From positions 4,260,001 to 4,292,000 of the forward strand of contig NZ_CP042905.2 in the NCBI RefSeq assembly GCF_008000775.2: DNA of 32,000 nucleotides. Direction: 5' to 3'. The DNA comes from Promethearchaeum syntrophicum (lineage in GTDB: Archaea; Asgardarchaeota; Lokiarchaeia; Sigyniarchaeales; Promethearchaeaceae). Every line of letters starts with the position of its first letter. Positions within the stretch are counted from its first letter, which is position 1. Position numbers and translations under genes: made by a program. Positions 5,820 through 31,322 of the stretch are shown piece after piece. The notes under the pieces are model-generated. The model ran no database searches. It was given only the letters and a program-made list of their open reading frames with translations, and had not been told where the DNA came from.

Positions 5820-6679
5820 AGATTTACTTTCTCCAGAATTTTTTTGGCAATTTCTGGTCGATTCATAGTGTAAATGTGTATTCCATCAACACCGTTTGCT
5901 ATTAAATCATTAATTTGTTGGGCAGCATAATAAATTCCTTCATTTTGCAATTTCAAGGGATTCTGGTGATTTTTTGCAATTATTTTAGATAATTTTCGCG
6001 GAATGGTGCTTCCACATAATGTTGTTATTCGATTCATTTGTTTTGCGTTTGTAACTGGCATTATTCCTGCAGATAATGGAATTTTTAGACCCATCTCTTC
6101 AAATCGATCCTTAAAATGATAAAAATATGTATTATCAAAAAAAATCTGGGAAATCAGGAAACAAGCACCTGTTTCAACCTTGAATTTAACATATTTTAAA
6201 TCTGTTTCAAAATTTTCTGCCTCAATATGACCCTCCGGATAAAAGGCAGCGCCTATACAAAAATTATATCTGTGATTTAACTCTTCAATTAAATCAGAGG
6301 CATATTTGTAATGTAGGGGAGTAGGAAATTTAAAATTTGGATCTGAAGGTAAATCACCTCGAAGTGCTAAAACATTTTCAATATTGTTTTCGTTTAATTC
6401 TTTAGCAATTTGAATGATTTCTTGCTTTTTAGCAGACACACAAGTTAAATGAGCAAGAGATTCAATTTTGTACTTGTTTTTTATAATTGAGGCGATTTCT
6501 ACAGTGTGGTCTTTAGTACCTCCTCCTGCCCCGTAAGTTACTGATATAAAATCAGGATTTAGAGCTTTTAGGGCTTCTATTGTGGAATAAATTGAATCCA
6601 AATTATAATTACGTGTGGGAGGAAAAACTTCGAATGAGATAACTGGTTTTTTTTGTTTAAAAAATTCTTTAATTAGCAT
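5816..6679 (-). CDS. metF: 5,10-methylenetetrahydrofolate reductase
   Basis: 287 aa. ISFEVFPP and ISVTYGAGGGT motifs are typical of MetF/MTHFR. Operonic with the metH genes. Confidence 0.9.
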   Translation of the reverse strand: MLIKEFFKQKKPVISFEVFPPTRNYNLDSIYSTIEALKALNPDFISVTYGAGGGTKDHTVEIASIIKNKYKIESLAHLTCVSAKKQEIIQIAKELNENNIENVLALRGDLPSDPNFKFPTPLHYKYASDLIEELNHRYNFCIGAAFYPEGHIEAENFETDLKYVKFKVETGACFLISQIFFDNTYFYHFKDRFEEMGLKIPLSAGIMPVTNAKQMNRITTLCGSTIPRKLSKIIAKNHQNPLKLQNEGIYYAAQQINDLIANGVDGIHIYTMNRPEIAKKILEKVNL

Positions 6680-10842: not shown

Positions 10843-12519
10843 TTAATAAACTCTCTCTATATAGCCTATTTTCTTTATCTTTTTACTTAAAATAGAAATG
10901 CTAACAATTGCAATACCAATAAAAAGAAAATATGGATACCCAGCCACCCCATTACTATCGCTTAAAATTATTACGCTAACATCATCTTGTATTGAACCCC
11001 CATACCCATCGAAAGCTATAATTGTGTAATTATAAATTCCAGGAATTAAGTTATTTACATCAACAATGATTAGTGAACCCGATGTCCATTCTCCTGTACT
11101 ATTTAGTGTCCCATTTTGATATATTGTATATGTTGGTGAGTGAACATTAATATCGGAAATGATCCAGGTAATGTAGTTCCCAATTTGGCCGTGTTCAAAA
11201 ATAATATCGCTCGGTCTATTAATGCTAATCCCATCTCCAGATTCCACTCCTTGCATATCATAATAAAGATATTGGTCGCTAAAGTTTTCATCAAGAAAAA
11301 AAGAACTTTTTGAATAACACCAAAAATCTTTATCTTCAAATGACATAGTTCCATATCCTCCTACGATAATTCCTAATTCTTGGTTAGCATCATAATGTTC
11401 CAATTCAGATTTCGGAATTTTGAATTCAAATTGGCGATGTGATGTAGAATTTAAAGAACTAGGTCCAAATCCAATACTATATTCTGCGTTTTTGATACTA
11501 CTTAATGGTTTATCCATAATATGATCATCTGGACCACCATGATTGTAGGAATCAACTTCAATGTAGAAAAATATGCGGTCATACAACACTTCAAATTCTA
11601 AACTGCTACTATTTGCAATTATACTTATCTTTAAAGTATTCTCTGCGGTTAAATTTCCTGAATTTATATATCCCCAATCATTATTTGGTACACTGTTTTT
11701 AGATAAATTAAAATTCTGATTGGGATCATCTAAATCAAGAGTACCATCGGGTTTCCAAGCAACAACTCTATGGGAATCAATAGTTGTATTTAAATCTGAA
11801 CGGATGTATAAATTAAATCTCTGAATATGACCTATGTAATCATCCAAGAGTTGCCCGTAAAAATTCTGCAAATCAAATTCAATATCTAACCGAGTAACAT
11901 TATAACCAAGATATGCTGTAGAATTTAAGCCATAGTACAAAGAATCGAAGGAGACTAAATCCTGATAATTGCCAAAATAATCACCATATATTACTGGTGT
12001 AATTAAATCTTCATCTGAAATTGGGTAAAAATCATTATCATATGAGCTAGAATCGCCAAATGGTTCCCATAACTCTTCTGAGCTTACATTTACAATTAAT
12101 GATTCTGCTCCATCATTAACTGTTTGAAGCCATTCATTTTCACCAGAAAACGAACTATTATTTGTATTAAGCCATATTCCTACCCATTCACTACTGGGAT
12201 CTACTGTCTGATCACAATTCAAATCCAAACCAATATATAAATTCTCTTCATCTTCTCCAATTAAAAGGCTGTTATTGCCATCGATATTCCCATCACTATT
12301 ATCAGCATCAATAAAAAATTGATCTCTGACATCTGCATCAATCCACTCAGTATCCCCGATGATTCCATCAAAATTTAGAGGTCCCATTTCAAGATTAGCT
12401 ATTGCTGGATTGTTTGAAGTAAGCAGAATTATTGAAGTTAAAAATAAACCAAGGAATATGCTCAGGAATTTTTTTTTAATTCTTATCATAATTATCACTT
12501 TGTTTTGTTGAATTTTCAA
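10843..12519 (-). CDS. Secreted/cell-surface protein with N-terminal signal/anchor, C-terminal TM anchor and many N-glycosylation sequons
   Basis: 558 aa. N-terminal KKKFLSIFLGLFLTSIILLTSNNPAIA. C-terminal hydrophobic YPYFLFIGIAIVSISIL followed by KKIKK. About 15 N-x-S/T sequons by my count. Acidic Asp/Asn-rich ectodomain, with an Ig-like-looking C-terminal module (YTIYQNGTLNSTGEWTSGSLIIVDVNNLIPGIYNYTIIAFDGYG). Confidence 0.7.
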   Translation of the reverse strand: MKIQQNKVIIMIRIKKKFLSIFLGLFLTSIILLTSNNPAIANLEMGPLNFDGIIGDTEWIDADVRDQFFIDADNSDGNIDGNNSLLIGEDEENLYIGLDLNCDQTVDPSSEWVGIWLNTNNSSFSGENEWLQTVNDGAESLIVNVSSEELWEPFGDSSSYDNDFYPISDEDLITPVIYGDYFGNYQDLVSFDSLYYGLNSTAYLGYNVTRLDIEFDLQNFYGQLLDDYIGHIQRFNLYIRSDLNTTIDSHRVVAWKPDGTLDLDDPNQNFNLSKNSVPNNDWGYINSGNLTAENTLKISIIANSSSLEFEVLYDRIFFYIEVDSYNHGGPDDHIMDKPLSSIKNAEYSIGFGPSSLNSTSHRQFEFKIPKSELEHYDANQELGIIVGGYGTMSFEDKDFWCYSKSSFFLDENFSDQYLYYDMQGVESGDGISINRPSDIIFEHGQIGNYITWIISDINVHSPTYTIYQNGTLNSTGEWTSGSLIIVDVNNLIPGIYNYTIIAFDGYGGSIQDDVSVIILSDSNGVAGYPYFLFIGIAIVSISILSKKIKKIGYIERVY

Positions 12520-13311: not shown

Positions 13312-14451
13312 ATGACAGAAATTAACATACGGAAAACGCCTTTAAGTGAAATGCACGAGAAATTGGGCGCAAAGATGGTAAATTTTGAAGATTGGTATAT
13401 GCCCGTAAAATTTGAAGGAGTTATTGAAGAACATATATGGACTCGGGAACATGCTGGAATTTTTGATATTAGCCATATGACTGAGTTCATGCTCGAGGGT
13501 CCTGATTGTATACCTTTTCTTAAACAAATGATGACAAATAGTATTGGAATTGGAGATTTTGCAGCTCAGTATCAACACATGTGCTATCCTAATGGAACTA
13601 TAGTCGATGATCTCTACATTTATCGAGAATCTGCTGAAAAAGTTAGAATTATTGCTAATGCTCAAACTTTGGAAACAGATGGAAAGGATTTCAATTGGTT
13701 AGAAGAACATATTGGAGATTATAAGGTAAAGATCACGGATCTTTCTTTAGAACGCACAAGATTTGCTTTTCAAGGTCCTGAAACCTTAAAATTATTAAAT
13801 CCAATTACTGATACAGATCTCGCAAAGATTAAGCGTTTCAGATGGTGTTATACAAATCTCATTGTCAATTCAGAAAAAATTCCGATTTTTTGTTCACGAA
13901 CAGGGTATACAGGAGAAGATAATTGGTCAGATTCATTGGCATCATTCGAAATATCGTGTGAAAATAAATATGCGACCAAAATTTATCAAATCTTCTTGGA
14001 TACTGGAGCAAAACCGATTGGTCTTGGAGCAAGGGATTCTTTGCGTTTAGAATGCTGTTATGCTTTATACGGAAATGATATTAATAATGAAATTACGACA
14101 GTAGAAGCTAATTTAGGATGGGTTGTCAAGGAAAAAGAAGGATTCGAATTTATAGGACAAGAAGTTCTACTTAAACAAAAAAGTGAAGGCCCGAAAAAAA
14201 TCAGTGTAGGCCTTAATTTACTTGATAAAGGCATTCTTCGAGCGGGATATAAGGTGTTCAAGGATGAAGAGGAAATTGGTTTTATCACATCAGGAACATT
14301 TGCTCCAACTTTAAAAAAAACTGTAGGATTAGCTATGATTAGTTCGGAATACAAAGCAATTGGAAATGAGCTTGATATATTAATCAGAGGTAAGAAAAAA
14401 CGGGCAGTTGTAGTTAAAACACCCTTCTATACACGCGGAAAGAAAAATTAA
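13312..14451 (+). CDS. gcvT: Glycine cleavage system T protein (aminomethyltransferase)
   Basis: 379 aa. TPLSEMHEKLGAKMVNFEDWYMPVKF, AGIFDISHM, GYTGED, ARDSLRLE. Small insertion (NWSDSLAS) after GYTGED. Confidence 0.9.
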   Translation: MTEINIRKTPLSEMHEKLGAKMVNFEDWYMPVKFEGVIEEHIWTREHAGIFDISHMTEFMLEGPDCIPFLKQMMTNSIGIGDFAAQYQHMCYPNGTIVDDLYIYRESAEKVRIIANAQTLETDGKDFNWLEEHIGDYKVKITDLSLERTRFAFQGPETLKLLNPITDTDLAKIKRFRWCYTNLIVNSEKIPIFCSRTGYTGEDNWSDSLASFEISCENKYATKIYQIFLDTGAKPIGLGARDSLRLECCYALYGNDINNEITTVEANLGWVVKEKEGFEFIGQEVLLKQKSEGPKKISVGLNLLDKGILRAGYKVFKDEEEIGFITSGTFAPTLKKTVGLAMISSEYKAIGNELDILIRGKKKRAVVVKTPFYTRGKKN

Positions 14452-14522
14452 AAATATTATTATTTGCCAATATATTAATTAAAAACGTTACCAATTTTTT
14501 TTTATAAATTAAAACTAAAAAA

Positions 14523-14906
14523 GTGAAAATTATGGAATTTCCAGGAGATTTAAAATATCAACCTACCCATGAATGGGCTAAAATTGAGGGAGATGTTGCG
14601 ACAGTAGGTATAAGCGCTCACGCCCAAGATCAATTAGGGGAGATAGTTTTTGTAGAATTGCCTTCTGTAGGCGATTCATTAGAAAAAGGAGCAGTTGCTG
14701 CAAATGTTGAATCATCTAAAGCAGTCGGAGAAGTAGTTACACCATTTACTGGAGAAATAACTGCTGTAAATGAAAATTTAGAAGATGAACCGGAAGTTGT
14801 AAACAGTTCACCATACGGTGACGGGTGGATCTTTAAAATTAAACTTAGTAATCCTTCTGAGACAGATGGATTACTTGATGCTGCTGGTTATCAAGGAACA
14901 TTATAA
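14523..14906 (+). CDS. gcvH: Glycine cleavage system H protein (lipoyl carrier)
   Basis: 127 aa. THEWAK, ISAHAQDQLGEIVFVELP and the lipoyl-lysine context VESSKAVGEV. The track start is GTG 14523; ATG 14532 is more likely. Confidence 0.9.
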   Translation: MKIMEFPGDLKYQPTHEWAKIEGDVATVGISAHAQDQLGEIVFVELPSVGDSLEKGAVAANVESSKAVGEVVTPFTGEITAVNENLEDEPEVVNSSPYGDGWIFKIKLSNPSETDGLLDAAGYQGTL

Positions 14907-14987
14907 TAGAAACAACCAAATTTTTCGATTTTTTTTTTATTCACTTTCACATTGATCGATATTAATTCTATTTAGAAGGAAAAAAAC

Positions 14988-16301
14988 ATGGATTATGTAC
15001 CGCATGATGAAGAAACAATTCAAACTATGTTAAAAAATATTGGAGTGGAGAAATTAGATGATTTATATTCAGATATTCCGAATAATCTGAAAATTAAAAA
15101 TCTAAATCTTCCCGAAGGATTACCAGAATCAGACCTACTTAAAAATTTAACCAACCTTTCTAAGAAAAACCATATTTATCAAACATCCTTTCTTGGTGCA
15201 GGTTCGTATTATCACTATATCCCATCTTTAGTTGATTTTGTTATCAGTCAAAGCCAGTTTTTCACATCGTATACACCGTATCAAGCAGAAATAAGCCAGG
15301 GAATGCTCCAAAGTATATATGAATACCAATCTGCAATATCAAGAATAACAGAAATGGATGTTACAAATGCTTCTATGTATGATTGCGCATCTGCATTAGC
15401 AGAAGCTGCAACAATGGCATTTTTTATCACCAAAAAGAGAAAAATTCTGCTTATTGAGGGAATTCATCCAGAATATATTGAAACCGTCAAGACTTATTGC
15501 TGGGGTCGGAGTATCGAAACAGAAATAATTCCTTTAAATGAACTTAATAATAAATTAACTGATGAAATTGCTGGAGTTTTAATCCAAAGCCCAAACTTTT
15601 TTGGAGAAATTGAAGATATCAGTCAAATTGCAGAAATTATTCGTTCAAAATCAAAAAAATGTTTGCTTATTCAAGCAATGAGTGATCCTACTTGCTTAGG
15701 ATATCTAAATCCTCCTGGAAAAACTGAGGTTGATATATTTGTTTCCGAAGGTGTGGGAATGCATCCATCTTTTGGGGGTCCGAATCTTGGAATATTATCA
15801 GTGAAAAATAAGTACATGAGAAAAATGCCTGGAAGATTAGTTGGGTTAACAAAAGAACTTCAAGGTGAAAAAGAGGGTTACGTTTTAACCATTCAAGCGC
15901 GAGAACAACATATCAGACGTGAAAAAGCGTTGTCCAATATATGCTCAAATCAAGGACTAGCTATGGTTGCTTCATTAGTGTACTTAGTTTCTTTGGGTAA
16001 AACTGGATTAAAAGAAGTTGCAATGCAAAATTTTCAAAAAGCAAATCATTTGAAACAGGCATTATCTCAAATCTCTGGATATGAAATTCTAAATACCAAA
16101 CCAACCTATAATGAATTCGTTGTTAAATGCCCAAACATTAACAAATTAATAAAAAGTTGCAAAGAGGAAAATATTTTGCCCCCTTTGAGATTATCTCATT
16201 ATTTTCCAGATAGGGAGGATGAAATTTTAATTTGTGTAACCGAATTGAATTCAAAAGAAGATATTATTAAATTCGTACATATTGCTCAGGAGGCCAAATA
16301 A
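14988..16301 (+). CDS. gcvPA: Glycine dehydrogenase (decarboxylating) subunit 1
   Basis: 437 aa. FTSYTPYQAEISQGMLQ motif. 1-nt overlap (ATAATG) with gcvPB. Confidence 0.9.
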   Translation: MDYVPHDEETIQTMLKNIGVEKLDDLYSDIPNNLKIKNLNLPEGLPESDLLKNLTNLSKKNHIYQTSFLGAGSYYHYIPSLVDFVISQSQFFTSYTPYQAEISQGMLQSIYEYQSAISRITEMDVTNASMYDCASALAEAATMAFFITKKRKILLIEGIHPEYIETVKTYCWGRSIETEIIPLNELNNKLTDEIAGVLIQSPNFFGEIEDISQIAEIIRSKSKKCLLIQAMSDPTCLGYLNPPGKTEVDIFVSEGVGMHPSFGGPNLGILSVKNKYMRKMPGRLVGLTKELQGEKEGYVLTIQAREQHIRREKALSNICSNQGLAMVASLVYLVSLGKTGLKEVAMQNFQKANHLKQALSQISGYEILNTKPTYNEFVVKCPNINKLIKSCKEENILPPLRLSHYFPDREDEILICVTELNSKEDIIKFVHIAQEAK

Positions 16302-17734
16302 TGACTCGTGAACTTTTAATTTTTGAGAAAGGATATAATACTGCAAAAAATAATTTCATTCCCAAAATGGATATTAAAGGAATAGATTTAGATGAAATAC
16401 TTCCAAAATCCCTTCAACGGAGTGAAGAAATAAACTTGCCCGATATTCCGGAATTTGAAATTGTACGGCATTATGTTAATTTAGCTCAAAAGAATTATGG
16501 TGTAGATAGTGGAATTTATCCTTTAGGCTCTTGTACTATGAAATATAATCCAAGAATTAATGAAATAACAGCACGATTGCCTGGATTTCTAAAAATACAC
16601 CCATTACAAGAAGAAAATGAAGGAGCTATTGAACTAATTTATAATCTTGGCCAACAACTGTGTGAAATATGCGGAATGAAAGCGTTTACGTTAAATCCCG
16701 CAGCTGGGGCTCAAGGGGAACTTACTGGCATACTAATTATTAAGAAATACTTTGAAAGTAAAGGAATAAAGAAGGATAAAATCATAGTCCCTGACAGTGC
16801 TCATGGAACGAACCCTGCTACATCAGCGATGGCTGGTTTTTCGATTATTGAAATAAAATCTGATGAAAATGGAGAATTACCATTAGATCAGCTTGAATTT
16901 GCCATGAAAGGTGGAGATGTTGCAGGGTTAATGTTAACTAATCCAAATACAATTGGTGTTTTTGATAGGAATATCGATAAAATCACTGAAATTGTTCATA
17001 AATACGGAGGATTATGTTATTATGACGGAGCGAATCTAAATCCAATTATGGGAATCGCCAAACCAGGTGAAATGGGCTTTGATATCATTCATTTAAATTT
17101 ACATAAAACATTTTCAACTCCACATGGTGGTGGTGGTCCAGGAGCAGGCCCTGTTGGAGTCAAAAAGGATTTAATCAAATATTTACCATGCCCCCAAGTA
17201 ATCAAAAATGAAGGAGGCTTAGTCTGTGTTGAAGATGATGGATCATCAATCGGACGGATGCGGAGTTTTTGGGGCAATTTTGGAGTTTTAGTTAGAGCCT
17301 ATACATATATTTTAGCATTAGGTAAGAATGGAATAAGAAGAGCCGCCCAAAATGCAGTTTTGAATGCAAACTATATCAGAACCCAAATAAAACATAAATA
17401 CTCCATCCCGTACGATCGAATTAATATGCATGAATTCCTTGTTGATGTTCACTTACCGAATGGTGTTAATTCTGAGGATGTTGCCAAAGGATTACTTGAT
17501 CGCGGTATTCACGCCCCGACTATATATTTTCCCTTAATTATTCATGAAGCAATGCTAATTGAACCTACTGAAACAGAAAATAAGCGTGAATTAGACAAAT
17601 TTATTAAAGCATTGTTAGATATTTATGAGGAAGCAGAGAATAATCCAGATCATCTTAGAAATGGTCCATATAATACTTTAATTGGAAGGTTAGATGCGAC
17701 ATTAGCAGCCCGTAAACCGCATTTACGCGATTGA
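16301..17734 (+). CDS. gcvPB: Glycine dehydrogenase (decarboxylating) subunit 2
   Basis: 477 aa. PLP-lysine context IHLNLHKTFSTPHGGGGPGAGP. Confidence 0.9.
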   Translation: MTRELLIFEKGYNTAKNNFIPKMDIKGIDLDEILPKSLQRSEEINLPDIPEFEIVRHYVNLAQKNYGVDSGIYPLGSCTMKYNPRINEITARLPGFLKIHPLQEENEGAIELIYNLGQQLCEICGMKAFTLNPAAGAQGELTGILIIKKYFESKGIKKDKIIVPDSAHGTNPATSAMAGFSIIEIKSDENGELPLDQLEFAMKGGDVAGLMLTNPNTIGVFDRNIDKITEIVHKYGGLCYYDGANLNPIMGIAKPGEMGFDIIHLNLHKTFSTPHGGGGPGAGPVGVKKDLIKYLPCPQVIKNEGGLVCVEDDGSSIGRMRSFWGNFGVLVRAYTYILALGKNGIRRAAQNAVLNANYIRTQIKHKYSIPYDRINMHEFLVDVHLPNGVNSEDVAKGLLDRGIHAPTIYFPLIIHEAMLIEPTETENKRELDKFIKALLDIYEEAENNPDHLRNGPYNTLIGRLDATLAARKPHLRD

Positions 17735-17753
17735 TTTTTTCTTTTTTCTTTTT
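17735..17753 (+). terminator. T6-C-T6-C-T5 tract immediately after the gcvPB stop
   Basis: T-rich run begins at the base after TGA 17732-17734. Confidence 0.4.
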
Positions 17754-17829
17754 ATTTCTTCTCATTAATGTATTTTATCCAAAACTTTTTATGGAAAATT
17801 GATTAAAATGTAATTGGTGAAACTATTTT

Positions 17830-18690
17830 ATGGTGAAATGTTTGTTAGTATATTATTCACTTGGGGGAACAACCAAGAGCATTGCTAATGAAATTTTGAA
17901 AGGATTAGAAAGTAAGGGATTTGAAGTTGATATCCATGATATCATTGAAGGTTTACCGCCTTCTATTGAGAATTATGATCTTTTAGGATTAGGAACGCCT
18001 ACTTACTATTTTCGTCCGCCCTTTATCATAACGGATTACATAAAATCTCTACCTAAAATAAAAATCCCATATTTTTCATTTATTTTGTATGGAACTATTA
18101 TCGGAGATGGTGGAAATCGGATTAGGAAGAAGCTTAACAGAAAAATTGGAAGGGATATTGGTTATTTTAAGTGTAATGGTACAGAGAATTTTTATGGATA
18201 TATTAAACGTGGTATTGTGACATACCCAAGTCATCCCGATCGTGAAGACTTAAAACAAGCGGAAAATTTTGGTAAATCAATTGAATCCAACTTAAATAAT
18301 AAAGATTATAAACCTGAGGATTTTGATAAAAAACCAGGTTTTATTTATCGTTTTGAGCGATTTACAACACAAAAATGGATAGTTCAAAAGTTTTATTATC
18401 GCTTTTTCAAGGTTAATAATTTGAAGTGCACTAAATGTGGAATTTGCGTAGATTCTTGCCCGACAAACAACATTAGCATGGAGACGGGTAATTTACCTAA
18501 GTTTGGAAAAAATTGTATTGGTTGTTTTAATTGTGAATTGAAATGTCCTGAAGCAGCAATTTCATCAGTCATAGATTGGAAAATTTTTAGCCCATTTATG
18601 AATTATAATGTGCGGAAAATTCCAAAAATCCCTTCAATTGAAATTATAAAAGTAAATCTAAACAAAGGAATAGCGGAAAAAATAGAATAA
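17830..18690 (+). CDS. Flavodoxin-like domain fused to a 2x[4Fe-4S] ferredoxin domain
   Basis: 286 aa. N-terminal LLVYYSLGGTTKSIA (flavodoxin-type FMN loop). C-terminal CTKCGICVDSCP and CIGCFNCELKCP (two CxxCxxCxxxCP motifs). Confidence 0.8.
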   Translation: MVKCLLVYYSLGGTTKSIANEILKGLESKGFEVDIHDIIEGLPPSIENYDLLGLGTPTYYFRPPFIITDYIKSLPKIKIPYFSFILYGTIIGDGGNRIRKKLNRKIGRDIGYFKCNGTENFYGYIKRGIVTYPSHPDREDLKQAENFGKSIESNLNNKDYKPEDFDKKPGFIYRFERFTTQKWIVQKFYYRFFKVNNLKCTKCGICVDSCPTNNISMETGNLPKFGKNCIGCFNCELKCPEAAISSVIDWKIFSPFMNYNVRKIPKIPSIEIIKVNLNKGIAEKIE

Positions 18691-18711
18691 TCGGTTTGAA
18701 TTGGTATATTT

Positions 18712-20337
18712 TTAGAATTCGTGCAAATCCGTAAAAATAGGGGTTAAACTCTTTAAAAATTGAAGGGAATTTTGCTTTTTCACTCTTTTATAAAGAGGAT
18801 TCTCTGGGAAAACTAAGAAATTTTGATTTTTTCTAAATAATTGTATAATATTTACTAATTTTCTTCCCGAAAACCGATTAAGTTGATGGAAATCGATTAA
18901 TAAAATTTTAAACAATTTAGAAATCATACCATCACTAACCCAAACTATGGAAGATACAAAGGTTATTTTATCAGAAAATTCAGTTCTAATTTGTGAAAGA
19001 ATAGACTTTTTGTTATTTTCCCCTTTAGAACGCTCGAGATTATTGTTTTTTATAGACCCAATAATATTTTGAAGTTTCTCATCAAGAATATATTCTATTT
19101 TTTTTATCACACCATCATTCATTGAAACATTAAAACCATAAATTTTATCCATTTTTTGAGTGTCCACTAAATTTGGAAGTTTTTTCCCTGTTAATAATAA
19201 AATATCTCCACTAAGATTAAAAAACATACATAATATCGAGTGTAGGAGTGTAGGAATTGACCAAAATGACAATTTTCGAGGATTGATATAAAAACCCAGA
19301 AAATAAATCCAAAATCTAATATTATTGTTATATATATAGGGTTTAGGAGACATATTCCATGGATTTCCAATATTCCTATAAAAATTCAAAAATTTTTCCT
19401 CAATTAGAATAAGTCTATCTTTTTGGATAGGAAATTGTGACTGAATCACCTCAAATATTAGCTCTTTTATATCTTTTAATTGGAAGATAAAATTAAGCTT
19501 AGTATTGCAATCTTTTTTCAAAAATTTAAGAATAGTTTCCTCTGTATTATTTGAACTGATTTTTGAAAAGATATGATCAGGTACTGGGTTGAATTGAATT
19601 GAAATCCTCGATTGAGAGATATTTATGAAATAAGGAAGAAATGCAGAATCTTCTTTTAGTCTAAAGGTAACAGTCATTTTAGATTTTGGTAAATATCTTC
19701 TAAAAGCTTTCATGAGATCAAAATAGGAAAAATTTCCAAAATAATCATGAAAATTGGAGAGAAAATCGAATACTGGGGAGGGAGGATAGCATAATAATAA
19801 TTGCTGATTTCGATTTTTAACAATTACATCTAAATATTCCCCAATCATCTTTAAAAAACCTCTATTAACACCATTTTTAAAATATTTCTCATGAATTGAG
19901 ACAAAATCGTTTATAGCTGCTAAGGGAATTATTCTTAAGTTTCCAATATCAACGCTATATGTCTTTTTTACCCAAACTCGAAGGATATTGTAGATTTCAT
20001 TCACATTTTTTAAATTGGTAGAGAAATTAGGTAATGTATCAACTTCAATCTTTTTTGTTTCTATGTACATGCCATCTTTATTTGATTTATGAAGGGTACA
20101 ATTACGTATTTCATCATTATCATCAACTATTAATTCAATTGAATTTGAATTAGAGTTCATTAATATCGGATATAATTCTAACCAAAGAAAATAAAAGGTT
20201 TTGATATCAATATCTAAAGATAATAAAGGAATTCTCGCTCCAAGGTTTAAGAATTTTTTATTAATCGTATAACCGTGGGCTCCACTTAATATTCGATTCC
20301 AATTATTCGAAGTTTCTTTTATTAGAGAATTATCCAT
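18712..20337 (-). CDS. Hypothetical protein, no recognisable domain (last gene of the radical SAM operon)
   Basis: 541-aa uninterrupted ORF. Its ATG lies inside the last codons of the upstream gene (8-nt overlap). No TM segment, signal peptide, P-loop or Cys-cluster motif seen. Confidence 0.65.
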   Translation of the reverse strand: MDNSLIKETSNNWNRILSGAHGYTINKKFLNLGARIPLLSLDIDIKTFYFLWLELYPILMNSNSNSIELIVDDNDEIRNCTLHKSNKDGMYIETKKIEVDTLPNFSTNLKNVNEIYNILRVWVKKTYSVDIGNLRIIPLAAINDFVSIHEKYFKNGVNRGFLKMIGEYLDVIVKNRNQQLLLCYPPSPVFDFLSNFHDYFGNFSYFDLMKAFRRYLPKSKMTVTFRLKEDSAFLPYFINISQSRISIQFNPVPDHIFSKISSNNTEETILKFLKKDCNTKLNFIFQLKDIKELIFEVIQSQFPIQKDRLILIEEKFLNFYRNIGNPWNMSPKPYIYNNNIRFWIYFLGFYINPRKLSFWSIPTLLHSILCMFFNLSGDILLLTGKKLPNLVDTQKMDKIYGFNVSMNDGVIKKIEYILDEKLQNIIGSIKNNNLERSKGENNKKSILSQIRTEFSDKITFVSSIVWVSDGMISKLFKILLIDFHQLNRFSGRKLVNIIQLFRKNQNFLVFPENPLYKRVKKQNSLQFLKSLTPIFTDLHEF

Positions 20338-22111
20338 TTACATCCCCCTCAATATATTTTTTCTTTATCCTCTTTACATTCTTTTTATAATTAAGGTCAA
20401 GTCGGTTCAAATTCCTTTTTAATTCATTATTAATTGTCTTAAGTTCCATTTGGTTTTTTGATTTTAATGGTTTATTTTTTTCTTTCTCTCGTTTCTTTAA
20501 TTTTTTCTTTGAATCACTTATGTTTGCTTTTATTTTTCTTTTATTATATTTCGGGAATGCATAAAATTCACGGGATATCTGAATAAAAAGGTTTAATGTT
20601 GAAATTTGTTTATTCTTCCAAAAATGGGATAGAGAAATGAGAGGATCCCATCCAAGAGGGGGATTACCAGGAATTTCCAATACCCTTTCGTTAAAGGCTA
20701 CATCTAATATTTTATTTTGAATAGATTGTTTTTTGTGTTTTGCAATTATATTTGTCCTCATTTTCTCAATTTGGTATTGATATTTATTGATTTTTAATTC
20801 CATTTTCATTTGCAATTTAACTTTGGTGGCTTCTTTGTCACTTTTAGCTGCTTCATCAGAAGTTTGCACAATATTATTTAGTGTATCTATTAATCCACTA
20901 TATTTTTTTCTAGTTTTTTCAACTTTTTGACGAGTTTTTCTTTGCTGAATTAAGATGGCTTTCTCCAACTCATCACCTTCTAAAGTCTCACCAACACCGA
21001 ATTCAAATCCCATTAAATTGATCAATTCAAAGATTTTCCCAGATATATTTCTAAATTTATATTTTTTTGTGGATTTAATTGCGGAGTCTCCAAAAACTAT
21101 TATATCACAATTAATCTCAGGATCTGGAGGATTAGTACCTGCTAAAATTGCCCAATTTCCAAAATTTGAGGCATCTTTTAGAAAAAGATTTTTAATCATG
21201 AAAAGAAATTGCAATAGAGCATATCGTTCACTGCTATTCAAATCTCCAGTATACACAGTTAATCCTTCTATATTTATATTAGTTGGTTCTATTTCAGAGA
21301 ATTTAATTAAAGGATTGTCCATTTGCATTTGAGATATTAAATTTATTGAATTTCTATCAATCAGGTTAAGTTCAGAAGCTTTTCTTAGAAATAAGTTCAG
21401 GGCTGGATCCAATCCAAAATGTTCATATGTAATCCAATCAACAGCCATAATGTTATTCGATATAATTATATTATTTGTTTTTACACATTTTGTAGTATTC
21501 CATGCAATTGGACCATTTCCTGTTAGAAGATAATAACTATCATTGATATATAAAGTTGGGATTTTTCGCTCAAGAAATTCAAAAACATGTTGAACTCTTT
21601 CTTCTCCAAAAATAGCATTATAATTCAATATATCATTCCATCTTTTCTTAGGAGATTTAATATTCCACAACATGAAGGAAGAACATGTCAATTTCCATAA
21701 TGGATCTGTTCTTATCTGTGATAAACATATAATTTTTGTGACTTCTTCTATAACAGGTGCAGAAAATTTGTAGAGTTCTTCGTATGTAATTGATGTAGCA
21801 CCATAATTTTGAATTAAATCTTCCAAACCTAAGGATTTCAAAGCTTTTTTTTGGTCTATCCCCCACATTACACCTGGTAAAATTTGAATTTTGGAAACAC
21901 CGATTATTTTGATGTTGTTAAGTAAACAATCTAATGTTTCTTGATTGATTGAGGAAGGACATGTAAAAGGACAATGAAGATCGATTAAAATAAGAACAGC
22001 ATCTTCTTTAGAAATAAATTTTGATAAACCTCCTAGAAGATTAAGTCCATTATTTAACGTCTCAGTTGGATTATTTCCTTCTGCAATTGCGACCGTATTA
22101 TTCATTCTCAC
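20330..22111 (-). CDS. Hypothetical protein: N-terminal DUF362-like region, a second unknown globular region, and a long Lys-rich coiled-coil-like C-terminus
   Basis: 593 aa. VAIAEG..LNLLGGLSKFISKEDAVLILIDLH, LTGNGPIAW and IIISNNIMAVDWITYEHFGLDP resemble the DUF362 pattern from memory. The last ~200 aa are Lys/Glu/Asn-rich with heptad-like character. The track start is GTG 22111; ATG 22105 is plausible. Confidence 0.65.
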   Translation of the reverse strand: MRMNNTVAIAEGNNPTETLNNGLNLLGGLSKFISKEDAVLILIDLHCPFTCPSSINQETLDCLLNNIKIIGVSKIQILPGVMWGIDQKKALKSLGLEDLIQNYGATSITYEELYKFSAPVIEEVTKIICLSQIRTDPLWKLTCSSFMLWNIKSPKKRWNDILNYNAIFGEERVQHVFEFLERKIPTLYINDSYYLLTGNGPIAWNTTKCVKTNNIIISNNIMAVDWITYEHFGLDPALNLFLRKASELNLIDRNSINLISQMQMDNPLIKFSEIEPTNINIEGLTVYTGDLNSSERYALLQFLFMIKNLFLKDASNFGNWAILAGTNPPDPEINCDIIVFGDSAIKSTKKYKFRNISGKIFELINLMGFEFGVGETLEGDELEKAILIQQRKTRQKVEKTRKKYSGLIDTLNNIVQTSDEAAKSDKEATKVKLQMKMELKINKYQYQIEKMRTNIIAKHKKQSIQNKILDVAFNERVLEIPGNPPLGWDPLISLSHFWKNKQISTLNLFIQISREFYAFPKYNKRKIKANISDSKKKLKKREKEKNKPLKSKNQMELKTINNELKRNLNRLDLNYKKNVKRIKKKYIEGDVNG

Positions 22112-22140
22112 TTTAAAATTAGATTTTGATGGTTAATAAC

Positions 22141-23445
22141 TTATTTTTTTGAATATCGAGTTTTCACCTTTCCAGCTTGTGATAGATGCTCACCATATGC
22201 TTTACCTATTTTGCTTAATTTCCCGATTATTTTTAAAATTGATGGATCTAAGATACCTTTAGGTTCATTTGAGAATGGTGTTCCAGGTAAAGGCATGAAT
22301 GTATGAGTATGAATTTTAACGTTTTTATATTTCCCTTCCAGAATTTCATTGAAAAAATTAAGGTTTTCTTTGATATCTTCTTTATTCTCTCCTGGAAATC
22401 CAAATATAAAATCTAACTCTATATTGAATTTAAATTCATTTAGCAATAAAATCGCCTTTTTAACTTGTTCAAATGTATGCCCCCGTTGAACACTGCGCAA
22501 TAATCGATTTGATGCCGATTGAGCACCGATTAAAATCTTTTTATTTGAAAGAAAGGGGGCAACGGTTTCTAAAACTTCATAAGTAACTGATTCTGGACGA
22601 ACTTCACTTGGAAATGTTCCAAAATAGATTCCCTTAATTGCGGGAATTGCATGAATTTGGGAAAGTAAATCAAAAAGAGCGTTTATATCTGGTGTAACCC
22701 CATTTCTTGAACCGTACCCAAAAGAATTTGGGGATAAAAACCAAACCTTATCAAATTTTATTTCACTGGCCATTCTCACCCATTTTACTATATTCTCAAC
22801 TGAAGCATGGCGCATTTTATTTGCACGATTACCTGTTTGACAAAATTTACACCGAAAGGGACAGCCTCTTGAGATTTCAATAGGTCCAAATAACCGAAAT
22901 TTTGCAGAAAATGGAGGATATTTGCCAACCTCTATTAATTTTGGTTGATTAGCGGGAATATAAATGGGAAATCCTCTTGATAGTCCAGAAATTAATTGTG
23001 TTTCAATCTTCTCCTTTGAAGTTCCTATAAGAACATGAAGAAGTTGAGAAAACGCATATTCTCCTTCATCAGGAATTATAAAATCTATTTTAAATCTTGC
23101 AAAATCTTCAGGAGATGCTGCAACATGAGAACCACCTACGATGGTTATTATTTTTGGATGGAATTTATTAAAAAAATTGTTGTGATTTATATTAAATTCT
23201 TCAAATTGCGGTATTTGAACTGAAAGGAGCGAATATGCTAAAATAACATAATCATATTTCTTGAAATCTATTTTCTCAAAATAGGCTTGATGAAGATGAG
23301 ATTTGTATAAATGAAATGGTAATGGATGGAAAGAATATTGATCCATAAGAACAGGATCAGATTCTAGATAACCCATCAAAATGCTCCATGTATACCGATT
23401 TGGTTTATCATACCCAAATAAAACTAAGGCTTTTGGCATTATCAA
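22141..23445 (-). CDS. Radical SAM enzyme with an N-terminal B12-binding-type (Rossmann-like) domain (class B-like)
   Basis: 434 aa. EISRGCPFRCKFCQTG (CxxxCxxC), preceded by a ~190-aa alpha/beta region (YDYVILAY, IVGGSHVAASPED, IIPDEGE) like the cobalamin-binding domain of class B radical SAM proteins. The track start is TTG 23445; ATG 23439 (MPKALVLF) is more likely. Confidence 0.85.
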   Translation of the reverse strand: MIMPKALVLFGYDKPNRYTWSILMGYLESDPVLMDQYSFHPLPFHLYKSHLHQAYFEKIDFKKYDYVILAYSLLSVQIPQFEEFNINHNNFFNKFHPKIITIVGGSHVAASPEDFARFKIDFIIPDEGEYAFSQLLHVLIGTSKEKIETQLISGLSRGFPIYIPANQPKLIEVGKYPPFSAKFRLFGPIEISRGCPFRCKFCQTGNRANKMRHASVENIVKWVRMASEIKFDKVWFLSPNSFGYGSRNGVTPDINALFDLLSQIHAIPAIKGIYFGTFPSEVRPESVTYEVLETVAPFLSNKKILIGAQSASNRLLRSVQRGHTFEQVKKAILLLNEFKFNIELDFIFGFPGENKEDIKENLNFFNEILEGKYKNVKIHTHTFMPLPGTPFSNEPKGILDPSILKIIGKLSKIGKAYGEHLSQAGKVKTRYSKK

Positions 23446-23966
23446 TTAGTTATTTCTTTAACTGAATTAATTTTTCGATTTATGAAATATTCAATAAAAT
23501 TCCTGTATTCAATTAGAGAATCAAAATTATTGAACTTGACGATAATTTTAACACTATTTTTTCGATAAATTTCAATATCTTTAATATTTAAGCTAGTAAA
23601 ATGCAGAATTAAGTGATCTACTAAATCATTTGAATGCTCAGAGATCAGTGAAAAAAAAATTTCTAAACCACTTTTAGGAAAAGATTGGACTGATAGATCA
23701 GAAGAAACTTGAAAATAATTTTCCTCACGTTTTTCAAAATTTTGTTTAATCAAATTCATTTTATCTTCAAAGCAAACGGGAAGAAATTCTAAAAATCCTT
23801 TATAACTTTTAAAAACAATTATTAACCCATTTTCAATCGATTCAATATAAAGTTTAGAGATTGGCTGTTTTTCAAAGCAATAATTCAAGAGACTATTATA
23901 TTTAATGAAATTCTTAAATATTGATTTGTATTTTATTGAGGATGTTATCCGTAATATTATTTTCAT
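23442..23966 (-). CDS. Hypothetical 174-aa protein (first gene of the radical SAM operon)
   Basis: ORF with ATG start. Its TGA stop (23442-23444) abuts or overlaps the radical SAM start. No recognisable motif. Confidence 0.55.
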   Translation of the reverse strand: MKIILRITSSIKYKSIFKNFIKYNSLLNYCFEKQPISKLYIESIENGLIIVFKSYKGFLEFLPVCFEDKMNLIKQNFEKREENYFQVSSDLSVQSFPKSGLEIFFSLISEHSNDLVDHLILHFTSLNIKDIEIYRKNSVKIIVKFNNFDSLIEYRNFIEYFINRKINSVKEITN

Positions 23967-24072
23967 GTGGTAATGAACAAATCCTAATTCATTCCTAAAT
24001 TTCTTTTGATAATATCTATTTTGAAAACAAATGCTTTTTAATTCATCCGAACAAGTTTAAAACTGAGTTATA

Positions 24073-24468
24073 ATGGCAAAACTTGATCTGGTGATTCTTA
24101 AAAAAAAATTTGCAATATGTCAACTTTCTCCAAAGGATTCGATACCAGATCCCTCAAATCTTGGTGATTTCTGGTCAATCACAAAAACTGATGATGAAAT
24201 TTCACTAATTGTCCCAGAAAATAAAATTCCTCATGTTAATTGCAAAACAGAAAAAAGTTGGCGAGCAATTAAGATAATTGGTCCATTATATTTCAGCTTA
24301 ACTGGAATAATTGCTACATTATCAACCGCACTTGCAAAAGCAGGAATTAGTATTTTTGCTTTTTCTACATATAATACTGATTATGTTTTGGTTAAAGAGA
24401 AAAATGTTGAACAATCAATAGAAGTTCTTGAAAAAAGTGGACACAAAATAATTGAATTACACCAATGA
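24073..24468 (+). CDS. ACT-domain (ACT_7/CASTOR-type) small-molecule-binding protein
   Basis: 131 aa. FAICQL...WSITKTDDEISLIV...IGPLYFSLTGIIATLSTALAKAGISIFAFSTYNTDYVLVKE matches the stand-alone ACT_7 family pattern as I remember it. Confidence 0.7.
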   Translation: MAKLDLVILKKKFAICQLSPKDSIPDPSNLGDFWSITKTDDEISLIVPENKIPHVNCKTEKSWRAIKIIGPLYFSLTGIIATLSTALAKAGISIFAFSTYNTDYVLVKEKNVEQSIEVLEKSGHKIIELHQ

Positions 24469-24675
24469 TGAATCAATTGAGCCATCAGGCAACAAATTAT
24501 CGGGATGAGACACCCCTGCTTCTTCTTTTTGATATCTAATGCAATTTGTATTCCCAATTAAACAATAATTATCAACCCAGTAGGAATCCAATTTCTTTTC
24601 ATCAGTAAAATATTTTATTGGACAGCAATAATACCATTTACAAATTCTATAATTAGGGGTCATTTTATATTTCAT
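24457..24675 (-). CDS. Small Cys-rich protein (72 aa), probable metal-binding, translationally coupled to the aminotransferase
   Basis: Five Cys in CKWYYCCP...YCLIGNTNC. 4-nt start/stop overlap with the upstream aminotransferase gene. Its 3' end overlaps the convergent ACT gene by 12 nt. Confidence 0.5.
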   Translation of the reverse strand: MKYKMTPNYRICKWYYCCPIKYFTDEKKLDSYWVDNYCLIGNTNCIRYQKEEAGVSHPDNLLPDGSIDSSLV

Positions 24676-25835
24676 GTTAGAGATCTTTTCTTTAAAAAGC
24701 GTTCTATTCGATTAAAGCCTTCTTCTAATAGTTCATCTGAGGTTGCATATGAAATCCTAAGCGAATAATCAGAATATGACCCAAATCCATTTCCAGGAAC
24801 ACAGGCAACGTGTTCTTCCTTAACTAGATCATTGGAAAACACTTCACTTGTCATATTCCAATTAGGATTTAACCTTGGCATGATGTAAAATGCCCCATAA
24901 GGTTCTACAACATCGAATTGTAACTCTTTTAAGCGTTTTAAGGTAAATTTTCTTTTTTTATCATAATTCTGGAGAATTTGAGGTATATCAGGGTTTCCTT
25001 TTGTTAATGCTTCTATTGCACCATACTGAGTAGGATGATTTACTCCTGCAGCTGTATATTGACCATATTTTTCCATTAATTCAATTATTTCTTTATTGGC
25101 CGCTACATATCCAAGACGAAGCCCAGTAGCACCAAATGTTTTACTTAGTGCATTTAAAGTGAGTGTTCTGTCCATCATTTCATCATAAGAACCAGGACTT
25201 ATATGAATGTGATCGTTATAAAGAAAATTTTCATAAACTTCATCGCTCACTAAGTACAGATCATTTTCAAGCACAATTTGGACCAATTCATCCATTTGTT
25301 TTTTTGAATAGACATACCCAGTTGGATTATTTGGTGAATTAATCATTATAAACTTTGTTTTGGGAGTAATAGCTTTACGAATTGCATCCAAGTTTGGACC
25401 ATAATTCTCCAATCTTGGAACTTCGACCAATTTAAGATGATAATAACTTGCTAGATAAATATATGAAAGAAAATTTGGGCTTGACATTATCATTTCATCA
25501 CCAGGATTGCTCAATACTGCAAAAGATAACTGCAGGGCTTGACTTCCTCCATTGGTAATCATAATATTTTCATTTTCTACCCCTTTCATATTATTTTCCT
25601 TCTGAAATTTCTGGGCAACAACTCTCCTTAATGTGGGTAACCCTAAAGCAGGAGCATATTGAGTCTTATGCTCATTTAATGCCTTAATTATTTCTTTATT
25701 TACGAAATCAGGGCTTGTAAAATCCGGTTGACCGATACCAAATGATATCCCATCAGAGCTTTGTAATAATAATTCAAATAATTTTCTAATTGCACTTTTT
25801 TGGGAATTGAGAATTGCATCTGAAAGTTGTTTCAT
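24672..25835 (-). CDS. Class I/II PLP-dependent aminotransferase (aspartate/aromatic aminotransferase-like)
   Basis: 387 aa. INSPNNPTGY and PLP-lysine context LSKTFGATGLRLGY. Confidence 0.9.
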   Translation of the reverse strand: MKQLSDAILNSQKSAIRKLFELLLQSSDGISFGIGQPDFTSPDFVNKEIIKALNEHKTQYAPALGLPTLRRVVAQKFQKENNMKGVENENIMITNGGSQALQLSFAVLSNPGDEMIMSSPNFLSYIYLASYYHLKLVEVPRLENYGPNLDAIRKAITPKTKFIMINSPNNPTGYVYSKKQMDELVQIVLENDLYLVSDEVYENFLYNDHIHISPGSYDEMMDRTLTLNALSKTFGATGLRLGYVAANKEIIELMEKYGQYTAAGVNHPTQYGAIEALTKGNPDIPQILQNYDKKRKFTLKRLKELQFDVVEPYGAFYIMPRLNPNWNMTSEVFSNDLVKEEHVACVPGNGFGSYSDYSLRISYATSDELLEEGFNRIERFLKKRSLT

Positions 25836-30698: not shown

Positions 30699-31322
30699 TT
30701 ATTCTCCGAGTTCATCAAATGGAATATGCATAGTTTCAACTGAATTCATTGTAATTGCCATAATATCCATGGCATTTCCGGCCATTGCATCTCTTTTTAT
30801 TGCGTTTCTTACCACTTTTTTCATTAACTCAATGCCTTTTTTTACTGTCAGAGTTGGTTTATATTCTGCTTCCAAGATTGAAACTGCGAAGGTTGCTGAG
30901 CTTCCACTCACACCGTAATCGTCTTCCATTAAAGAACCAATAGCATCCATGGTGTAGACTCTAGGGCCATTTTCATCTATCCCTGCAACTTCTACATTAA
31001 CATATAAAGGAGCCATCTTTCTTTGATACATATAATTTGCTACCATTTTAGCCATAGCTTGAACTGAAATTTTATAGCCTTCTCGTAATTCATAGATGTT
31101 AGCTTGTGCATTCATGATTCGGGCTAATGCTTGGAAGTCTCCAATTAGACCGTAGCACGATATCGCTATCTTCTTGTCTTTTGTAAGAGGAAATATCTTC
31201 TTCACGTTCTTGTTATTAACCGTATAACCCCAAGTTGACCTTGTGTCATTACCTAAAACCACTCCATCCTTACATCTTATTGCCACGCTACAAGCGCCCG
31301 GAACCCAAATTTGCTGCGACAT
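30699..31322 (-). CDS. psmB: 20S proteasome beta-type subunit, apparently non-catalytic (Ala at the Thr1 position)
   Basis: 207 aa. Collinear with archaeal and eukaryotic beta subunits (KIFP, IYELREG, MVANYMYQRK, VAGID, DAIGS..DDYGVSGS, RDAMAGN). The N-terminus MSQQIWVPG-ACSVAIRCKDGVV places Ala where Gly-Thr1 is expected. Confidence 0.85.
   Translation of the reverse strand: MSQQIWVPGACSVAIRCKDGVVLGNDTRSTWGYTVNNKNVKKIFPLTKDKKIAISCYGLIGDFQALARIMNAQANIYELREGYKISVQAMAKMVANYMYQRKMAPLYVNVEVAGIDENGPRVYTMDAIGSLMEDDYGVSGSSATFAVSILEAEYKPTLTVKKGIELMKKVVRNAIKRDAMAGNAMDIMAITMNSVETMHIPFDELGE

Follow-up and report, generated by a model that had tools for sequence, protein, structure and literature searches.

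A gene pair encoding a DUF362-type protein and an apparently phylum-restricted partner, and its clade-specific linkage to a TIGR04013 radical SAM gene in Promethearchaeota

The window analysed here is a stretch of 32,000 nucleotides (nt) of the genome of Promethearchaeum syntrophicum MK-D1 (contig NZ_CP042905.2, positions 4,260,001 to 4,292,000; family Promethearchaeaceae, phylum Promethearchaeota, the former Lokiarchaeota, according to the NCBI taxonomy). Its minus strand carries four tightly packed open reading frames (ORFs), in the order 174-amino-acid (aa) protein, radical S-adenosylmethionine (SAM) enzyme, 591-aa protein and 541-aa protein. The last two are members of an obligate pair, made of a DUF362-type protein and a protein of a family newly defined here; the linkage of this pair to the radical SAM gene is clade-specific. 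The explanation that is preferred, tentatively and at somewhat less than an even chance, is that of a Promethearchaeota-specific three-gene operon with a young 174-aa add-on, in which a complex of the 591-aa and 541-aa proteins would work with the radical SAM enzyme and be co-adapted to it. Homologous loci compared with that of MK-D1 are designated by L-numbers (L001, L155, etc.).

The ORFs, as listed, occupy 23442-23966 (174 aa), 22141-23445 (radical SAM enzyme), 20330-22111 (593 aa) and 18712-20337 (541 aa), in the close same-strand packing described in an initial annotation of the window. Two starts were refined from ortholog alignments. That of the radical SAM gene is the ATG at 23439 (MPKALV..., 432 aa; gene at 22141-23439) and not the TTG at 23445, which the initial annotation had left as an option; this ATG follows 2 nt after the TGA that ends the 174-aa gene. 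The start of the protein listed with 593 aa is the ATG at 22105 (MNNT..., 591 aa; gene at 20330-22105), which matches the annotation of DSAG12_00480; with this start, the distance from the radical SAM stop is 35 nt instead of the 29 nt first given. The overlap between the 591-aa and 541-aa genes is exactly 8 nt (20330-20337, ATGGATAA), as first read. The junction of these two genes (20330-20350, minus strand; sequence GAGGGGGATGTAAATGGATAA) comprises a Shine-Dalgarno (SD)-like purine block (GAGGGGGA, 20343-20350) located 5′ of the 541-aa start, then the 541-aa ATG (20335-20337), embedded in the final codons of the 591-aa gene, and the 591-aa TAA (20330-20332). The 541-aa and 591-aa proteins are DSAG12_00479 and DSAG12_00480, respectively (100% identity each); no mention of these two locus tags was found in the literature. 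All four genes are real, and all are under purifying selection (ratio of non-synonymous to synonymous substitution rates, dN/dS, 0.12-0.20 versus two relatives).

The gene order radical SAM-591-541 is kept in 11 lineages of Promethearchaeota, down to 41% identity of the radical SAM enzyme. The trios found at 66, 62, 60, 51 and 41% identity are those of L007, Harpocratesius, L. ossiferum (L009), L010 and L011, respectively. Homologs of the 591-aa and 541-aa proteins were retrieved from these five by tblastn with E values of 1e-17 to 1e-79 and only 21-31% identity. The trio is kept in L. ossiferum and in L011 with entirely different flanking genes. Close relatives share the full neighbourhood, and therefore give little information on functional linkage. 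This distribution is consistent with the lineage-specific, probably co-transcribed module that had been proposed. The synteny of the quartet, which was to be sought in other genomes, is found for the trio; the 174-aa gene is not in the set. In a neighbour-joining tree of 87 radical SAM enzymes (Kimura distances), the enzymes encoded in trios come out as one clade in 49 of 50 bootstraps (48 of 50 when L155 is added), and the nearest outgroups of their clade, L012 and then Baldrarchaeota, are devoid of the partners. This simple tree does not fix the precise placement of L155 and L011.

The pair is older than this linkage. In all 11 trio lineages, the gene directly upstream of the 541-family member is of the DUF362 type. 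The same holds for L093-L095, in which a DUF362 protein of 457-493 aa (PF04015) is encoded 3-27 nt upstream of a partner of about 505-528 aa. A metagenome scan seeded from this subgroup of the 541 family gave 80 further loci. The DUF362 gene is directly upstream of the 541-family gene in 69 of them, the remainder having no upstream sequence, and a TIGR04013 gene, i.e. one of the radical SAM family discussed below, was found in a single one, L155; the pair is therefore obligate and the radical SAM linkage clade-specific. Pairs are called radical SAM-free when no such gene is found nearby; the term refers to their surroundings and not to the whole genome. In 8 of 8 lineages, the two genes either overlap, by 8 or 4 nt, or are separated by 10 or 13 nt, and a GGAGG-like block lies 5-12 nt upstream of the 541-family start in all 8. 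This conserved layout points to translational coupling, which would fix the stoichiometry of the two products; the pair most likely forms a stoichiometric heteromeric complex.

The family of the 541-aa protein (18712-20337, minus strand; downstream member of the pair) was used for an exhaustive profile search of 1.84 billion cluster representatives, from which only 107 were retrieved. The full-length ones (about 505-600 aa) align end-to-end and have the same architecture, and all named members belong to Promethearchaeota or Lokiarchaeota. By this search, the family appears to be restricted to the phylum Promethearchaeota and to contain no described domain. The MK-D1 protein shows the traits of the family: end-to-end homology, the motif N-x2-K-x3-W-x2-P (N352-x2-K355-x3-W359-x2-P362), a C-terminal [HR]E[FY] (here HEF) and an adjoining upstream DUF362-type gene. 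Individual Pfam scans of 46 divergent members gave no recurrent match. Credible matches (above threshold or recurrent) in Pfam, NCBIfam, PADLOC or PDB sequences are lacking for the 541-aa and 174-aa proteins and for the part of the 591-aa protein outside DUF362, in agreement with the first impression that these regions belong to no recognisable family, and PDB-sequence profile searches with four alignments gave no match. Neither a P-loop nor a CxxC motif occurs in the 541-, 591- and 174-aa proteins, as had been noted for P-loops and metal-cluster motifs; the three proteins contain a single hydrophobic stretch, borderline and interrupted by polar residues (residues 364-382 of the 541-aa protein). 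Invariant positions in both partners are mostly Pro, Gly, Trp and Asp, without conserved catalytic-looking residues. A Foldseek search of the PDB with the AlphaFold2 (AF2) model of the 541-aa protein found nothing significant (best E value 0.054, TM-score about 0.1). RNase-H/ASKHA-type folds are in excess among the weak Foldseek matches of this low-confidence model, which includes two beta-beta-beta-alpha-beta-alpha units; the ASKHA-like 'DIGN' motif is not conserved across the wider family. A metagenome protein of the European Nucleotide Archive (P0018, 491 aa), for which a PF18135 domain is precomputed, is 61% identical to the 541-aa protein over 43% of the latter; this is possibly a fusion or a chimera of assembly.

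The 591-aa protein (20330-22105, minus strand; upstream member of the pair) is a degenerate member of the DUF362 family. The DUF362-like character attributed to its N-terminus (about aa 1-270; 21296-22105) is sub-threshold in MK-D1 (18.7 bits against PF04015 for a threshold of 24, E 0.0019, residues 118-226 only) and clear in homologs: the L011 protein scores 46.5 bits over the full-length profile and that of L010 28.6 bits, those of L093-L095 are listed as PF04015, and 6 of 9 family members match. DUF362 (PF04015) belongs to the same Pfam clan, CL0471, as DUF2088, the N-terminal domain of LarA (PMC11770544). No solved DUF362 structure was detectable in a PDB search, and no functional work on DUF362 was found in the literature. 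The 591-aa protein is homologous to canonical DUF362 partners (L093-L095, L155) over its whole globular part; it has the same N-terminal DUF362 domain, followed by a second domain with FGD-x-AI-x-ST and G-x-PP, and the same obligate downstream partner gene. It differs from them by its score below the Pfam cutoff, by the replacement of K-x-N after strand 1 by L-x-D, by the replacement of CSGC...GDCA...GCPP by NSSE...GDSA...GNPP (N290/E293/S341/N481), and by two gains, of about 85 aa as a coiled-coil insertion and of about 70 aa as a Lys-rich tail. The insertion, a clade-specific helical hairpin (about aa 377-472; 20690-20977), is located between the positions of the canonical Cys3 and Cys4 and contains 23% Lys+Arg. 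The helical C-terminal tail (aa 523-591; 20333-20539) contains 36% Lys+Arg and has a net charge of +17. Only the insertion (helices 380-415 and 420-474; predicted local distance difference test score, pLDDT, 66-86) and the tail helix are confident in the AF2 model.

In the aligned radical SAM-free partners, K-x-N and the four Cys (CSGC...FGDCA...GCPP) are present, Cys3 is separated from Cys4 by 38-56 residues, and the tail measures 41-49 aa. The derived, radical SAM-linked ones retain none of the four Cys (14 of 14), and have 120-142 residues between the positions of Cys3 and Cys4 and tails of 64-177 aa. The Cys3-Cys4 spacing is 19-56 aa in 57 canonical partners; all four Cys are present in 50 of 54 full-length metagenomic partners and also in L093-L095 and L155. 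The four Cys would form a probable metal or Fe-S site. The DUF362 partner is remodelled in 14 of the 15 trio-clade proteins examined, the exception being L155. In L104, L123, L147 and L173, the linker between Cys3 and Cys4 is shortened to 19 aa, which is a second, independent route of degeneration of the same site. A strict rule equating Cys loss with radical SAM linkage was rejected, as it is broken by these four loci and, conversely, by L155.

The radical SAM enzyme is a full-length member of the TIGR04013 family (B12_SAM_MJ_1487, or MJ_1487 family): it scores 347.9 bits (cutoff 251) over residues 8-419 and profile positions 1-381 of 382. The NCBI class of this model is 'hypothetical equivalog'. 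The radical SAM core read in the initial annotation from CPFRCKFC is present (PF04055, 84 bits); its CX3CX2C cysteines, C193, C197 and C200 (22840-22863, minus strand), are invariant in 14 Asgard orthologs, as are the N-terminal signatures GGxH (G102-G103-x-H105) and E-G-E (E125/E127). The match to the B12-binding domain PF02310 (24.7 bits) falls short of the cutoff of 32.1; the domain is listed for most orthologs. The enzyme contains three Cys in total, all of them in CX3CX2C, and therefore no auxiliary cluster; no SPASM domain or RRE, the recognition element of ribosomally synthesised and post-translationally modified peptides (RiPPs), was matched in Pfam and NCBIfam scans. The only published functional suggestion for TIGR04013 is a BzaE-like role, made at 29% identity and speculative (PMC11742838); apart from it, no functional work on MJ1487 or TIGR04013 was found in the literature.

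The next NCBIfam models after TIGR04013 are MiaB/RimO (TIGR00089, 87.3 bits) and MgmA (TIGR04014, 75.6 bits), and the enzyme's best PDB match is the MgmA of M. marburgensis (9CCB, E 4.5e-20). The relationship to MiaB/RimO extends over the radical SAM core (RimO in the PDB, 2e-8); the score is far below the TIGR00089 cutoff of 251, the N-terminal auxiliary-cluster domain with three Cys is missing, and a Pfam scan found no TRAM domain. MgmA (QCMT), a radical SAM enzyme that depends on B12 and methylates the alpha carbon of a glutamine of McrA, is encoded by a gene that clusters with mcr, the genes of its substrate, in Methanobacteriales and Methanosaeta (PMC11796369). Judged by these matches, the nearest characterised relative is this protein C-alpha-methyltransferase, which would share its architecture (B12 domain and radical SAM domain) with the MK-D1 enzyme and is the nearest relative with a solved structure. 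The MK-D1 enzyme is nevertheless not a member of TIGR04014 (cutoff 360), its host has no methyl-coenzyme M reductase (MCR), with no mcr gene in the window, and TIGR04013 is found in many non-methanogens and in bacteria. The analogy with MgmA and the absence of an auxiliary cluster make B12-dependent C-methylation of a macromolecule the most likely chemistry of the MK-D1 enzyme.

The trio-clade enzymes have diverged from the rest of TIGR04013. The MK-D1 enzyme has the CX3CX2C, a putative Rossmann-type B12-like N-terminus and 41 of the 44 family-conserved columns (those conserved at ≥95% in stand-alone TIGR04013 enzymes), i.e. not all family-invariant residues. Residue 212, twelve residues past the last Cys of CX3CX2C, is Arg without exception in the stand-alone enzymes (77 of 77) and Ala or Val in 10 of 10 trio-clade ones (Ala in MK-D1; 22804-22806, minus strand). 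When L155, which has Lys, is counted, Ala or Val is found in 10 of 11. Residue 309, Gly in the family, is Ala in 10 of 10 trio-clade enzymes. These enzymes score 348-356 bits against TIGR04013 versus 390-494 bits for stand-alone ones, i.e. about 40-140 bits less, and their genes are operonic with two added proteins. Three complete genomes, those of MK-D1, L. ossiferum and Harpocratesius repetitus, each have one TIGR04013 member among the top 120 matches, so that the operonic gene is the only copy rather than an additional paralog.

The distribution of TIGR04013 was established by a scan of GTDB (one genome per species) with two family peptides, in which at least 600 matches were listed and the best 80 loci were examined. 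These span Asgard archaea, Thermoproteota, Bathyarchaeia, Methanocaldococcus, Archaeoglobi, DPANN and bacteria, including Thermotogota, Thermodesulfobacteriota, Nitrospirota and Chloroflexota. Partners were searched among the ORFs within ±8 kb with hidden Markov models built from our own alignments. They are present in 4 of these best 80 loci (Promethearchaeum sp., HM1_B6_4, L. ossiferum and H. repetitus) and absent from the other 76, among which are loci of TACK, Euryarchaeota, DPANN and many bacteria and, within the Asgard archaea, of Baldr-, Thor-, Njord- and Heimdallarchaeota and of Asgardarchaeum. The result of 76 in 80 is unchanged with profiles that include canonical DUF362 partners.

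The 174-aa gene (23442-23966, minus strand) is outside the conserved core. Intact orthologs occur only in L001, L013 and L002/L003 (64-78% identity); L005/L006 have a pseudogene with in-frame stops, and the gene is absent from the trio lineages examined upstream of the radical SAM gene (L007-L011). Its dN/dS is 0.18. A search with its hidden Markov model found no further relatives, and the protein has no Pfam, NCBIfam or PADLOC match. From this ortholog survey, it appears to be a genus-level orphan, presumably co-transcribed with the radical SAM gene, and a young add-on to the conserved set, and not one of three dedicated partners as the initial annotation had it.

The base composition of the block had been taken as a sign of insertion. 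The block is AT-rich (GC 0.23-0.29 versus 0.31-0.36 in the neighbours), apart from the radical SAM gene, which at 0.324 is like the housekeeping genes, and its proteins are richer in Phe, Ile, Asn, Lys and Tyr. GC content at third codon positions (GC3) is flat across block and neighbours (0.18-0.24); since the proteins are rich in these amino acids and GC3 is uniform, the AT-richness reflects amino-acid composition and not foreign DNA. The position between the aminotransferase and gcv genes is common to L002, L005, L007 and L010, down to 51% radical SAM identity. A horizontally inserted island was rejected on account of the uniform GC3 and of this syntenic position.

Under the preferred reading, the older obligate module, made of a DUF362-family protein and a phylum-restricted protein of about 540 aa, is translationally coupled and would form a heteromeric complex. 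In one clade, this pair joined the operon of a widespread and normally stand-alone TIGR04013 enzyme, and would then have co-adapted with it. The DUF362 subunit lost its four-Cys site and K-x-N and gained the coiled-coil hairpin and the Lys-rich tail, and the radical SAM enzyme replaced, on the same branch, its otherwise invariant Arg. The loss of Cys and K-x-N, together with the coiled coil and the tail, suggests that a catalytic or redox function gave way to that of a scaffold or adaptor. The 591/541 complex may bind the radical SAM enzyme and recruit, regulate or present a macromolecular substrate for B12-dependent radical methylation.

Several observations weigh against this reading. The radical SAM family is without 591/541 partners in nearly all other lineages, and the pair in turn occurs without the enzyme: no radical SAM gene is found within ±10 kb of the pair in L094, nor upstream of 34 metagenomic pairs with at least 2 kb of upstream sequence (at least 5 kb for 16 of them). 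The linkage is a single evolutionary event, so that the changes that co-occur in the trio clade amount to a correlation with n=1. The four Cys are lost without a radical SAM gene nearby in L104, L123, L147 and L173 (SDSN, SDDN, CENN), and L155 is radical SAM-linked with K-x-N and four Cys kept, no coiled coil and Lys212, which means that Cys loss is not strictly tied to linkage. From its sequence, L155 looks like an intermediate, in which linkage would have come first and remodelling of both proteins later. For the fold and the scaffold role, the AF2 models of both partner families, built from alignments of 12-16 close homologs, are poor (pLDDT 49.0 and 45.7).

These observations bear on an alternative that is possible, though rather doubtful: co-transcription without any functional link, the autonomous pair having landed 3′ of the radical SAM gene in one ancestor and having depended on its promoter since. 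Such an origin would agree with the autonomy of the pair in most loci and of the enzyme in most genomes, with Cys loss in a sub-lineage without the enzyme, and with a gap between the radical SAM and 591-aa genes (34-86 nt across lineages) that is looser than the 591/541 junction. It accounts less well for an adjacency that outlasted the reshuffling of flanks down to 41% radical SAM identity, for the change of an invariant Arg and the lower family-model scores in the trio clade specifically, and for the remodelling of the DUF362 partner in the same clade. It is unlikely that the pair is instead the substrate, i.e. that the enzyme C-methylates the 591-aa and/or the 541-aa protein. The parallel would be the mgmA-mcr clustering, MgmA being a protein C-methyltransferase whose gene clusters with those of its target (PMC11796369), and three Cys without an auxiliary cluster fit a methyltransferase rather than a methylthiotransferase. 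The similarity to MgmA is, however, far under the family cutoff (76 versus 360 bits), no conserved target motif was identified, and an enzyme that is the sole TIGR04013 copy of its host (among the top 120 matches) and belongs to a family that predates the pair must act, or must once have acted, on a different and more universal substrate.

A dedicated four-protein system, in which the radical SAM enzyme and three obligate partners would make a new lipid, cofactor or natural product, was the proposal of the initial annotation. The tight packing (2-nt gap, 35-nt gap and 8-nt overlap) and the purifying selection on all four genes are compatible with it. Against it, the 174-aa gene can be dispensed with and occurs only in a genus-level group, the radical SAM gene is single-copy (among the top 120 matches) and widespread in archaea and in many anaerobic or thermophilic bacteria, the partners lack conserved catalytic-looking residues and the DUF362 metal site is lost in MK-D1. 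Nor does the enzyme generally need the partners, being alone in 76 of the best 80 GTDB loci, and in most loci the pair is found without it. The comparative sequence data largely refute this system, which is considered very improbable. The preferred reading can also be carried further, to a more specific and rather improbable form: the pair would be a Lokiarchaeota-specific complex that was turned, in the clade containing Promethearchaeaceae, from a metal-dependent enzyme into a coiled-coil scaffold with a polycationic tail, which recruits, or is C-methylated by, the single ancient B12-dependent radical SAM methyltransferase. It would then be a new protein- or RNA-modification machinery, and the 541-aa protein might carry a degenerate RNase-H/ASKHA-like double domain.

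The 174-aa gene is separated from a divergent ACT-domain gene by an AT-rich intergenic region of 106 bp (23967-24072), which is presumed to be the promoter region of the MK-D1 operon. An Rfam scan of 17500-25000 gave no match. A gene encoding a flavodoxin fused to a 2x[4Fe-4S] domain (EFR1-family ferredoxin, 111 bits versus a cutoff of 75; 17830-18690, plus strand) is convergent with the 541-aa gene. It is missing from the corresponding position in L002, L005, L007 and L010, and is the actual MK-D1-specific insertion at this place; its product is conceivable as an electron donor for the radical SAM enzyme. Genes of one-carbon, B12 and methyl-cycle metabolism are dense nearby (2741-6679 and 13312-17734): they encode a B12 methionine synthase resembling MetH (2741-5128), a protein with a MetH activation domain (5103-5819), methylenetetrahydrofolate reductase (5816-6679) and a gcv set (GcvT, GcvH, GcvPA, GcvPB). 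The gcv genes adjoin the trio in L002, L005, L007 and L010 and not in L009 or L011. Two ORFs, at 9289-10659 (plus strand, 456 aa) and 10843-12519 (minus strand, 558 aa), have no Pfam match; the former is found at 74-82% identity in L002 and L005, and the latter has no tblastn match in the fetched loci.

A 72-aa ORF (24457-24675, minus strand) overlaps the stop of the aminotransferase gene by 4 nt and is found at 58-82% identity in 8 lineages. Its product has invariant C12, C18, C38 and C45, W14, H57 and a motif LPDG, and no Pfam or NCBIfam match. The gene is directly upstream of the radical SAM gene, on the same strand, in L007, L008 and L014; in L. ossiferum, it stays beside the aminotransferase gene and not beside the radical SAM gene. 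A RiPP cluster, already thought improbable when the window was first read, was rejected: SPASM and RRE domains are lacking, no short precursor ORF co-varies with the radical SAM gene, and the only conserved short ORF nearby, this 72-aa one, tracks the aminotransferase. An anti-phage defence system was also rejected, as the 174-, 591- and 541-aa proteins have no PADLOC match and only a generic one was obtained for the radical SAM core.

The stand-alone radical SAM gene is flanked by a NOG1-type GTPase gene in Thor- and Baldrarchaeota and in L012 (loci L034, L044, L021, L012, L017 and L018), and a proteasome subunit gene lies directly upstream of it in Thorarchaeota. A proteasome subunit is encoded about 7 kb upstream of the radical SAM gene in MK-D1 (30699-31322), a distance that is 2-3 kb in L002 and L007. 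The radical SAM-free pairs of L094 and L095 likewise have NOG1 and a proteasome subunit at their flanks. These surroundings may be an ancestral Asgard neighbourhood, common to the radical SAM gene and to the pair. In Fervidobacterium, the stand-alone gene is flanked by YchF, TruB and PheS. The NOG1/proteasome and YchF/TruB/PheS neighbours are weak hints at the translation apparatus. In L012 (genome GCA_041305945.1, the closest outgroup with the radical SAM gene alone), a coiled-coil protein of 589 aa with a weak match to crescentin-type Rod_CreS is encoded just upstream of the NOG1-radical SAM pair (4035-5804, minus strand).

The conserved unit is thus corrected to 2+1 genes rather than 4, and is no horizontally inserted island. 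TIGR04013 is among the more widespread radical SAM families still without a function, and DUF362, likewise an orphan family and a large one, is sister to the LarA nickel-pincer enzymes. At this locus the two are brought together, in Lokiarchaeota only. The loci form a natural comparative series (stand-alone radical SAM enzyme; autonomous four-Cys pair; linked four-Cys trio, in L155; linked degenerate trio with an Arg-to-Ala radical SAM enzyme), which bears on the function of the pair and on the way in which an ancient housekeeping radical SAM enzyme acquires lineage-specific partners. P. syntrophicum MK-D1 and L. ossiferum, the two Asgard archaea in culture, both possess the trio, which makes these hypotheses experimentally testable. 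If the scaffold reading is true, a protein- or RNA-modification machinery would have arisen in the cultured prokaryotic relatives of eukaryotes.

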